Assembly: GCF_003334405.1 (NCBI RefSeq)
Contig: NZ_QOWM01000008.1
DNA length: 64,000 nt
Reading direction: 5' to 3' (one strand)
Source of the DNA: Escherichia coli
GTDB lineage: Bacteria; Pseudomonadota; Gammaproteobacteria; Enterobacterales; Enterobacteriaceae
In this document: positions 17,786-18,350 of the stretch, piece after piece
Position numbering within the stretch: position 1 is the first letter of the stretch
Layout: each line of letters begins with the position of its first letter
Translations under genes and position numbers: made by a program
Notes under the pieces: model-generated
Told to the model about the DNA's origin: nothing
Databases searched by the model: none
The model's input: only the letters and a program-made list of their open reading frames with translations

Positions 17786-17830
17786 GCGCTTTTCCCCTCA
17801 CCCTAACCCTCTCCCCAGAGGGGCGAGGGG
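17786..17830. repeat. GC-rich imperfect palindromic intergenic repeat (REP-like hairpin family, not classical PU)
   Basis: CCCCTCACCCTAACCCTCTCCCCAGAGGGGCGAGGGGACC, self-complementary; inverted copy at 17975-18013. Confidence 0.6.
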
Positions 17831-17974
17831 ACCGTATTGTGCAAATATTGTTACCCCAGCAACAAACAGGCTCATACAGCCCCTAACCCTTTCATGGCGA
17901 TGGCTGGGACGGTTCAGACCTTGCCGAATATTCTCCAGCACCGTCTCCATGTTTTCACCACAACAGCTATTCGG

Positions 17975-18013
17975 CTCGGTCTGCCCCCTCGCTCTTTCAG
18001 GGAGAGGGTGACC
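17975..18013. repeat. Second copy (inverted) of the GC-rich palindromic repeat, overlapping the ycjD 3' end
   Basis: GCCCCCTCGCTCTTTCAGGGAGAGGGTGACC is roughly the reverse complement of the 17786-17830 element. Confidence 0.6.
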
Positions 18014-18350
18014 GGCGGTTCAGTTCCTGCAGAATATTCTCCAGCACCGTCTCCTCATTACAATCAATCTCGTTATTCCAGAAACGCAGCACGGTCCAGC
18101 CCTGCGACTCAAGCCAGCTAGTGCGCCTGGAATCATAGGCAACTGCTAAATCATGCTGCCCACCATCCAGCTCAACGACTACACGCGCCGAGCAGCAAGC
18201 AAAATCGAGAATGTAGCTCCCCACTGGATGTTGACGGCGAAATTTGAAATCACTAAAACGTCGGCTGCGAAGATATCGCCAGAGCTTTCGTTCCTGCAAA
18301 GTGAGATTGCGTCTTAAATCACGCGCATTTGATTTAATTTTATCTATCAC
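17997..18350 (-). CDS. ycjD: DUF559 / endonuclease-like protein YcjD
   Basis: 117 aa ORF with GTG start (MIDKIKSNARDL); 3' end overlaps the palindromic repeat. Confidence 0.8.
   Translation of the reverse strand: MIDKIKSNARDLRRNLTLQERKLWRYLRSRRFSDFKFRRQHPVGSYILDFACCSARVVVELDGGQHDLAVAYDSRRTSWLESQGWTVLRFWNNEIDCNEETVLENILQELNRRSPSP

Follow-up and report, generated by a model that had tools for sequence, protein, structure and literature searches.

For the repeats named successively BoxC, PIT elements and TMECO, neither an origin nor a partner protein nor a function has, to our knowledge, been established since 1992. BoxC was first described from the sequence of envM, that is fabI (Bergler 1992); the names PIT element and then TMECO came later. 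Strain K-12 holds 23 TMECO copies, five as inverted A+B pairs; the elements were reported to be always intergenic, with no pattern among the flanking genes, and strain-to-strain variability is in excess within 500 nt of them (Holder et al. 2015, PMC4666352). Neither promoter nor terminator activity was detected for them in Maher's laboratory (Hoyne & Maher 2000, 2002). The chromosomal interval between fabI and sapF is itself known to be polymorphic: it carries either the eefRABCD operon or the gene ycjD, the latter in ST69/ST182 and in strains of phylogroups A, B1 and C (Pugh et al. 2026, PMC12817139). The locus described below is the same and so is the polymorphism, and the '12-nt insertion at the 3' end' that these authors report for the ST69/ST182 ycjD corresponds to a retained third TMECO block; BoxC/TMECO, the duplication and the relic tail go unmentioned there.

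By its fold, YcjD belongs with the Vsr endonuclease and its DUF559 relatives (PDB 3HRL; Caulobacter VsrA; a Vsr-like homing endonuclease listed with PDB 3R3P), and a DUF559 protein is known to damage DNA in vivo in Caulobacter. It differs from Vsr in that no linkage to a cytosine methylase is seen for ycjD. E. coli has Dcm/Vsr already. At the level of organization, the closest likeness is to the REP/REPIN-RAYT systems. In both cases the genome is strewn with short, structured GC-rich repeats, some single and some paired as inverted doublets, and the same repeats can flank a small gene of nuclease type, present once per genome, their sequence differing from one gene clade to another. However, RAYTs (TnpA-REP) are HUH/Y1 single-strand transposases, whereas the YcjD fold is a Vsr-like PD-(D/E)XK one, its action on repeats is only putative, and the repeats of the enterobacterial ycjD are found on the 3' side only. 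Since YcjD is a DUF559/PD-(D/E)XK and not an HUH/Y1 protein, we regard it as an analogue of REP-RAYT rather than a member.

The window, that is, the whole stretch of 64,000 nucleotides analysed, is E. coli K-12-like, with the gene set yciW, fabI (16841-17629, minus strand), ycjD (minus strand), sapF and sapD. A preliminary description of the sequence had reported a 23-mer present twice, each copy preceded by GGTTCAG, the second encoding the C-terminus of YcjD and the first lying between fabI and ycjD, together with an inverted pair of GC-rich palindromic elements. All of this stands, with the 23-mer one base to the right of where it had been placed: GAATATTCTCCAGCACCGTCTCC has two exact copies in the 64-kb window, at 17926-17948 and 18032-18054, GGTTCAG is found at 17911-17917 and 18017-18023, the second copy encodes on the minus strand the YcjD end ...ETVLENILQELNRRSPSP*, and the inverted arms (17806-17830 and 17985-18009, 25 nt) are 80% complementary. 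In 100 dinucleotide-preserving shuffles, the 23-mer was never matched, not even when up to 3 mismatches were tolerated. Around it extends a direct repeat of 39 nt with 90% identity and spacing 106, copies A and B in the Table, which with small gaps and at lower identity extends to about 70 nt (17880-17948 versus 17985-18054). The score of this longer local alignment, which takes in TMECO and tail, is 65, compared to 15.7 +/- 2.1 (maximum 24) in shuffles. The duplication escapes Tandem Repeats Finder, since beyond the 39-mer the two copies have diverged too far. Spacer 1 is, by alignment, the orthologue of the single spacer in unduplicated alleles; spacer 2 resembles part of it weakly but significantly (p 0.026, 2.6% of 2,000 shuffles scoring as high), so that the two units are homologous in tail, TMECO and spacer, and lie adjacent in the same orientation, head to tail. 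A longer duplicated piece of the gene, with spacer 2 deriving from ycjD coding sequence, was ruled out (similarity p 0.52).

Table. Features of the fabI-ycjD junction (positions in the window; a dot marks features without strand; L003 and L013 are the single-unit loci introduced in the text).
Feature	Position	Strand	Sequence or basis
Complete BoxC/PIT/TMECO, type A, outer member of the inverted pair	17794..17829	-	CCCTCGCCC-CTCTG-GGGAGAGGG-TTA-GGGTGAGGG
Spacer 1	17832..17879	.	Aligns almost base for base with E. ruysiae L013 and L003
Decayed copy of the gene-proximal TMECO	17881..17909	+	CCCTAACCC-TTTCA-TGGCGATGG-CTGGGAC; third block deleted
Copy A, relic of the last 13 ycjD codons	17910..17948	-	Reads ETVLENIRQGLNR; holds the first exact 23-mer; non-coding in K-12
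Spacer 2, diverged copy of part of spacer 1	17949..17983	.	29-nt local alignment
Gene-proximal TMECO, only two hairpin blocks left	17986..18008	+	CCCTCGCTC-TTTCA-GGGAGAGGG; match to hairpin pattern
ycjD, 117 aa, DUF559 / Vsr-like PD-(D/E)XK nuclease-fold protein	17997..18350	-	Profile matches and RefSeq annotation
Copy B, authentic ycjD 3' coding tail	18016..18054	-	ETVLENILQELNR; holds the second exact 23-mer
Perfect 17-bp palindrome with 11-nt loop, over the ycjD start codon	18347..18391	.	Inverted-repeat search

The GC-rich elements are members of the BoxC/PIT/TMECO family, which is dispersed at a median of 18 places per E. coli genome (with a query including the consensus). The TMECO pattern CCCTCNCCC-N3-6-GGGNGAGGG-N3-GGGNGAGGG is matched exactly at 17795-17829 on the minus strand; this is the only full match in the window, with 0 expected by chance. 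The element is TMECO no. 9 (type A, 1,351,239-1,351,204 antisense), of the same sequence and at the same position as in Table 1 of Holder et al. 2015 (PMC4666352). The gene-proximal element is a truncated member, and its inverted pairing with no. 9 matches the published pairs; the ycjD stop codon (17997-17999) is inside the loop of its hairpin. Neither this element nor the relic is matched by the full pattern in the window, both being degenerate members. The decayed relic aligns with the intact TMECO of copy B and of single-copy alleles, and at its position the third block GGGGTGAGAG is still kept at two other E. coli loci, L005 and L019. At the orthologous gene-proximal position, a full three-block TMECO is found in L003 and L005 (by the pattern) and in L019 (by alignment). 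Local indels, mutated copies and loss of the third block are typical of the family as described by Holder et al. 2015 (PMC4666352); in contrast to their 'always intergenic' rule, the gene-proximal element overlaps the stop of ycjD and forms the final codons of the gene, a trait conserved in this family, and duplication of a gene tail is absent from their account.

Two gene-less TMECO doublets of K-12, at fepB-entC (L054 178-275) and ygfF-gcvP (L055 reverse, 190-288), have a conserved 27-nt spacer between A and B, and the doublet of about 100 bp is therefore a repeat unit in its own right.

The fabI side of the junction is matched by all 5,426 complete E. coli genomes, but ycjD and the repeats by only 3,346 to 3,378; the others (about 38%) have an 8-kb TetR/RND/OMF/MFS operon between fabI and sapF, so that window 17753-18417 and L004 12154-20047 are alternative occupants of one interval. 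A 60-mer of the ycjD tail occurs at 6,452 places in 3,378 of the 5,426 genomes, at most twice in any one; about 3,070 genomes, or some 91% of those positive for ycjD, therefore hold both copies. The preliminary description had considered that the repeat might belong to a wider family unrelated to ycjD, and had proposed a search across strains for simpler alleles. The 39-mer occurs at most twice per genome among the 5,426 E. coli genomes and so does not belong to a dispersed family, and alleles without the duplication do exist. In L003 (strain 2017-02-2CC) and in E. ruysiae (L013), a single unit is present, consisting of the outer TMECO, a spacer of about 44 nt and a TMECO at the stop codon, complete with three blocks in L003 and partly degenerate in its first block in L013; YcjD is 120 aa long in both and ends ...SPSPQPSP*. 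L005 and L019 have two units with the third block kept in each, while K-12, L007 and L020 have two units that both lack it (13 nt lost in the relic and 12 nt in the gene copy). Finally, L018 has one chimeric unit with a crossover inside the 23-mer region, and its ycjD runs through the relic tail into the outer TMECO. This ycjD is a pseudogene in RefSeq, and the same product is known as proteins of 106 to 158 aa ending ...RQGLNRPSHRHERVRGCMSLFVAGVTIFAQYGPLAPLGRGLG; in such deletion alleles (L018; proteins P0004, P0012, P0018, P0022 and P0074) the relic tail is the real 3' end of ycjD. The K-12-type tail is found in 1,895 genomes and an unconverted type (see below) in about 1,370. Nine matches to the ycjD 3' 60-mer are on records labelled plasmid.

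Taken together, we consider an in-situ tandem duplication at a BoxC repeat, followed by decay, conversion and deletion alleles, to be the probable history of this junction. Its anatomy, the allele series, the frequencies in the population and the identity of the repeats are direct observations, from which the direction of change, the slippage and the conversion are inferred. The interval would be the 3' boundary of a ycjD cassette, with the last codons and the stop inside a TMECO and a second, inverted TMECO beyond. A unit of about 106 to 118 bp (spacer, gene-proximal TMECO and last 13 codons) would have been duplicated head to tail in a common ancestor of the present ycjD alleles of ST69/ST182 and of E. 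coli phylogroups A, B1 and C, most likely through replication slippage or template switching at the structure-forming repeat. The two single-unit alleles are the most divergent from K-12 ycjD (dS 0.11 for E. ruysiae L013 and 0.5 for L003), and one unit is therefore taken as ancestral, a polarity based on these two outgroup alleles only. The fabI-proximal copy would then have become a non-coding relic with its TMECO mutated out of consensus, and K-12-type alleles would have lost the third triplex block from both copies. The L003 allele (2292-2654), with a dS of about 0.5 to K-12, yet adjoining a fabI end and promoter region that are identical, is either imported or very old.

The two tails seem to recombine still. 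At positions 6 and 19 of the 23-mer, copy B reads A,C in L005, L006, L007, L019, L020 and L013, and T,T in K-12; T,T is also the state of copy A in K-12, L007 and L020. With three discriminating sites in 23, we roughly estimate at 0.001 the chance that two independent hits would mimic the paralogue, and gene conversion is therefore the better explanation. Short conversion would thus have given the 23 identical nucleotides of K-12-type alleles, changing EAVLEII to ETVLENI. Protein P0003 (...EEAVLENI...) has only one of the two 'converted' changes, which fits a shorter conversion tract, but also stepwise mutation. Crossovers between the copies would have produced the natural deletion alleles, in which ycjD is read through the relic tail into the outer TMECO. 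The proposal that the native C-terminus had been altered is supported for K-12, where the 12-nt loss turned ...SPSPQPSP* into ...SPSP*, in addition to the change from EAVLEII to ETVLENI.

Divergence between the two units is uneven, 10% in the tail, about 25 to 30% in the TMECO and about 37% in the spacers, which counts against a simple duplication; moreover, the non-coding divergence far exceeds the synonymous divergence to the unduplicated E. ruysiae allele. The silence of Tandem Repeats Finder and the modest spacer similarity (p about 0.03) also count against it. Either faster mutation beside TMECOs, as in the observations of Holder et al., or a more complex history could explain the excess in the relic TMECO and spacer 2. 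The main rival reading takes copy A for the leftover 3' end of an older ycjD cassette, partly replaced by an incoming one through nested or adjacent integration. Such an event would account for non-coding parts that are more diverged than expected of a duplication younger than the split of E. coli and E. ruysiae. It would also be in keeping with the movement of ycjD alleles between lineages (as for L003 next to an identical fabI flank), with the presence of ycjD in ST69/ST182, which are in phylogroups otherwise having eef, and with the occurrence of a ycjD-type cassette at three different loci across genera. We nevertheless think it unlikely: order and orientation of the units are exactly head to tail, spacer 2 resembles spacer 1, none of the other alleles or genera examined matches the tail of copy A better than copy B does, and a second upstream hairpin or start region is not present.

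The preliminary description proposed a repeat-element insertion or a recombination. The duplication of part of the ycjD 3' end and the idea of recombination are supported. Insertion would mean that a BoxC/TMECO entered the end of ycjD and left the direct repeat as a target-site duplication; direct repeats do flank a GC-rich palindromic element. Such an insertion as the cause is not supported: all single-copy Escherichia alleles already have a TMECO at the stop codon, as do homologues from other genera at two other loci, so it is ancestral and older than the duplication, the repeat, at 39 to 70 nt with the TMECO copy, is far too long, and spacer 2, which lies between the repeats, does not itself consist of a repeat element. 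With a spacer and a TMECO copy inside the duplicated unit, the event is a segmental duplication in tandem; to a target-site duplication we give almost no credence. The relic might also be kept for a function: it could form a structure in the 3' UTR, encode a small or antisense RNA, or insulate the fabI promoter from the sap-ycjD transcript. About 91% of the genomes with ycjD have the arrangement, the predicted fold of the minus-strand RNA of 17740-18060 is a little more stable than those of shuffles (z -2.7), and antisense transcription at the ycjD 5' end has been mentioned (Pugh et al. 2026, PMC12817139). We find this very improbable, because Rfam families gave no match, terminator-like sites are absent at the TMECOs and promoter-like sites are found only in the upstream palindrome, Maher's laboratory saw neither activity for such elements, and the relic is decaying, varies among alleles and has been deleted in natural strains without loss of the locus. 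Nothing indicates a separate function of the relic copy. A role of TMECOs as terminators was likewise rejected, there being no terminator-like sites at them and the published assays being negative. An inversion between the inverted TMECOs acting as a switch of the YcjD tail was dropped, since the coding tail is outside the invertible segment.

In Klebsiella quasipneumoniae (L011 3352-3572), three tandem 66-nt units, each with a CCCTCTCCC...GAGAGGG hairpin, lie between TMECOs 3' of a DUF559 gene. This is a second, independent tandem amplification at the same position of the module. Such instability outside E. coli, like the excess variability near TMECOs seen by Holder et al., speaks for the proposed duplication.

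The tandem duplication is itself a small, ordinary rearrangement at a repeat known as unstable. It explains the atypical C-terminus of K-12 YcjD, as well as the 'YcjD' variants of 147 to 160 aa and the pseudogene calls in databases. Although real, and situated at the original BoxC locus, it matters less than a by-product of the analysis, the tight and conserved coupling of DUF559 genes with BoxC/TMECO.

YcjD is, from its sequence, a predicted nuclease of DUF559 / Vsr-like fold. It matches Pfam DUF559 (PF04480) over residues 4-111 with E 1.5e-49, the NCBIfam equivalog PRK09767 with 268 bits (cutoff 218) and PDB 3HRL with E 1.2e-41, and the invariant acidic and histidine residues D49, E60, D62 and H66 (K-12 numbering) are kept. 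Comparison of the K-12 gene with the other four alleles gave dN/dS values of 0.16 to 0.43, indicating purifying selection. Defence-system models in PADLOC did not match YcjD.

Among the best 120 homologues of YcjD, 108 include the C-terminal part of the domain. A PSPxPSP motif is present within the last 45 residues in 66 of these 108, and is the exact C-terminal end in 55; it is found in 62 of the 89 non-Escherichia-like homologues, which are only 55 to 67% identical overall. In eleven other named enterobacterial genera, most homologues have the C-terminus ...PSPRPSP*. This peptide results when a type B TMECO is translated on its reverse strand, loop 1 providing the stop codon. As homologues end in a translated TMECO, the repeat did not insert into ycjD. 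In DNA of Enterobacter, Phytobacter, Klebsiella and Kluyvera, the order is ORF, reversed TMECO-B, a spacer of 10 to 180 nt and forward TMECO-A, and these modules are found at two other chromosomal loci, one between hemW or DUF1202 and yggN, the other between an ABC-transporter substrate-binding-protein gene and a Dyp-type peroxidase gene. A homologue at the yggN locus without the in-frame tail (L177) has a palindromised TMECO right after the stop codon.

In that homologue, from Enterobacteriaceae bacterium BIT-l23 (L177 1536-1585), the stop-codon TMECO has turned into a perfect palindrome of 19 bp (CCCCACCCCGGCCCTCTCC TTTTG GGAGAGGGCCGGGGTGGGG), in agreement with the 'palindrome effect' described by Holder et al. 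2015 (PMC4666352).

The coupling extends beyond the enterobacterial gene: at the loci examined, DUF559 genes almost always adjoin TMECO-like repeats. Distant genes of the YcjD clade (L021, L022, L178 and L179) lie between two TMECOs, one in forward orientation that directly adjoins the start codon and one reversed that covers the stop codon, L024 and L025 have TMECO doublets on both sides of the DUF559 gene, and in L027 the gene is flanked on both sides by inverted repeats. A second DUF559 clade has different GC-rich terminal inverted repeats, 27 to 64 nt long and 90 to 100% complementary, whose right arm overlaps the end of the ORF. We scored each gene by the best inverted repeat between its upstream and downstream windows and compared it with 400 control ORFs. 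Seventeen of 21 DUF559 loci on viral contigs exceeded the control 99th percentile, with a median score of 52 and a maximum of 98, versus a mean of 18.5 and a maximum of 32 in controls. The ycjD of the window and the other enterobacterial modules scored gave only 14 to 18, their repeats being on the 3' side only; any left end would have disappeared from them, in keeping with the constant location of the module inside each clade. The gene-less doublets of K-12, which read A(+), 27-nt spacer, B(-), have the end arrangement of L022 minus the gene. DUF559 has been found enriched among predicted inversion targets with an odds ratio of 14 (Milman et al.), probably on account of the same inverted repeats.

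Five IMG/VR contigs (L031, L032, L033, L037 and L041) end exactly at the GC-rich repeat over the 3' end of the DUF559 ORF, as expected if assemblies break at a multi-copy repeat.

In the reverse direction, 120 TMECO-bearing IMG/VR stretches (1.1 Mb, 149 TMECOs) contained one DUF559 gene. Most TMECOs are therefore gene-less, and the association is one-way. In E. coli, chromosomes hold 13 to 32 TMECO places in 36 sampled ycjD-positive strains and 1 to 20 in 22 ycjD-negative ones (at most 7 in 12 of these), a comparison confounded with phylogroup. Published counts are 1 to 2 in B2, 6 to 7 in D/F, 10 to 11 in E, 15 in UMN026, 13 to 24 (mostly 18 to 24) in A and 25 to 30 in B1 (Holder et al. 2015, PMC4666352), and O157:H7 has 10 to 14 copies without ycjD. 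The co-occurrence of ycjD and TMECO number being inseparable from phylogroup, it is not counted as support. Named genera with YcjD-like proteins overlap the TMECO-positive enterobacteria of Holder et al. (Escherichia, Shigella, Enterobacter and Klebsiella), and Salmonella and Citrobacter are in neither list, which is weak evidence because many database entries carry no genus name.

These associations suggest, but do not prove, that BoxC/TMECO repeats have their cognate proteins in the DUF559 nucleases, and, by analogy with described systems, they suggest a relationship of the REP-RAYT or homing type. Tentatively, and with somewhat more doubt than confidence, we propose that DUF559 genes are the cores of compact selfish elements, that BoxC/TMECO repeats are the ends, gene-less derivatives or homing targets of these elements, and that YcjD is the partner of BoxC. 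The proposed element, of about 0.45 to 0.6 kb, would consist of an inverted GC-rich structured repeat, a Vsr-like nuclease of 110 to 130 aa and an inverted repeat over the stop codon, and would form a previously unrecognised class of selfish elements; TMECO A+B doublets might likewise be ends, gene-less derivatives or homing targets. The enterobacterial ycjD would then descend from an element whose left end was lost and which has since stayed at its site, and the hypervariability of TMECO loci, including the duplication of the ycjD tail, could stem in part from nuclease action at the repeats. A paper linking DUF559 to BoxC/TMECO was not found in the literature searched, which left out most subscription journals, and a prior description is possible. 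The association ties DUF559 to BoxC/TMECO at nucleotide resolution: at three chromosomal loci, and in distant homologues too, loop 1 contains the stop codon. It thus makes an open question testable, namely whether YcjD binds or nicks TMECO hairpins or triplexes and drives rearrangements at TMECO loci, and, if true, it would provide a function for a protein family that is very large and still uncharacterised.

The 5' end of ycjD also has a conserved structure. YcjD homologues at other loci have a hairpin equally far from the start, with about 8 nt between it and the start codon (upstream alignment of six loci). The hairpin of the window holds the only promoter-like sites of the interval, and a permissive Rfam search of 16500-19500 gave only chance-level miRNA-type matches, all on this palindrome. 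A similar hairpin is left beside sapF in eefRABCD strains without ycjD (L004 20003-20045). At 18345-18350, K-12 ycjD has ATA where L005 and L007 have their ATG start (VIDKIK versus VMDKIK), so that the K-12 ORF starts at a GTG one codon upstream; L003 and L013 begin MDKIK. In strain ETEC6 (NZ_CP041627.1 1404639-1406216), an IS1 has inserted at ycjD, and the annotation splits the gene into two DUF559 fragments.
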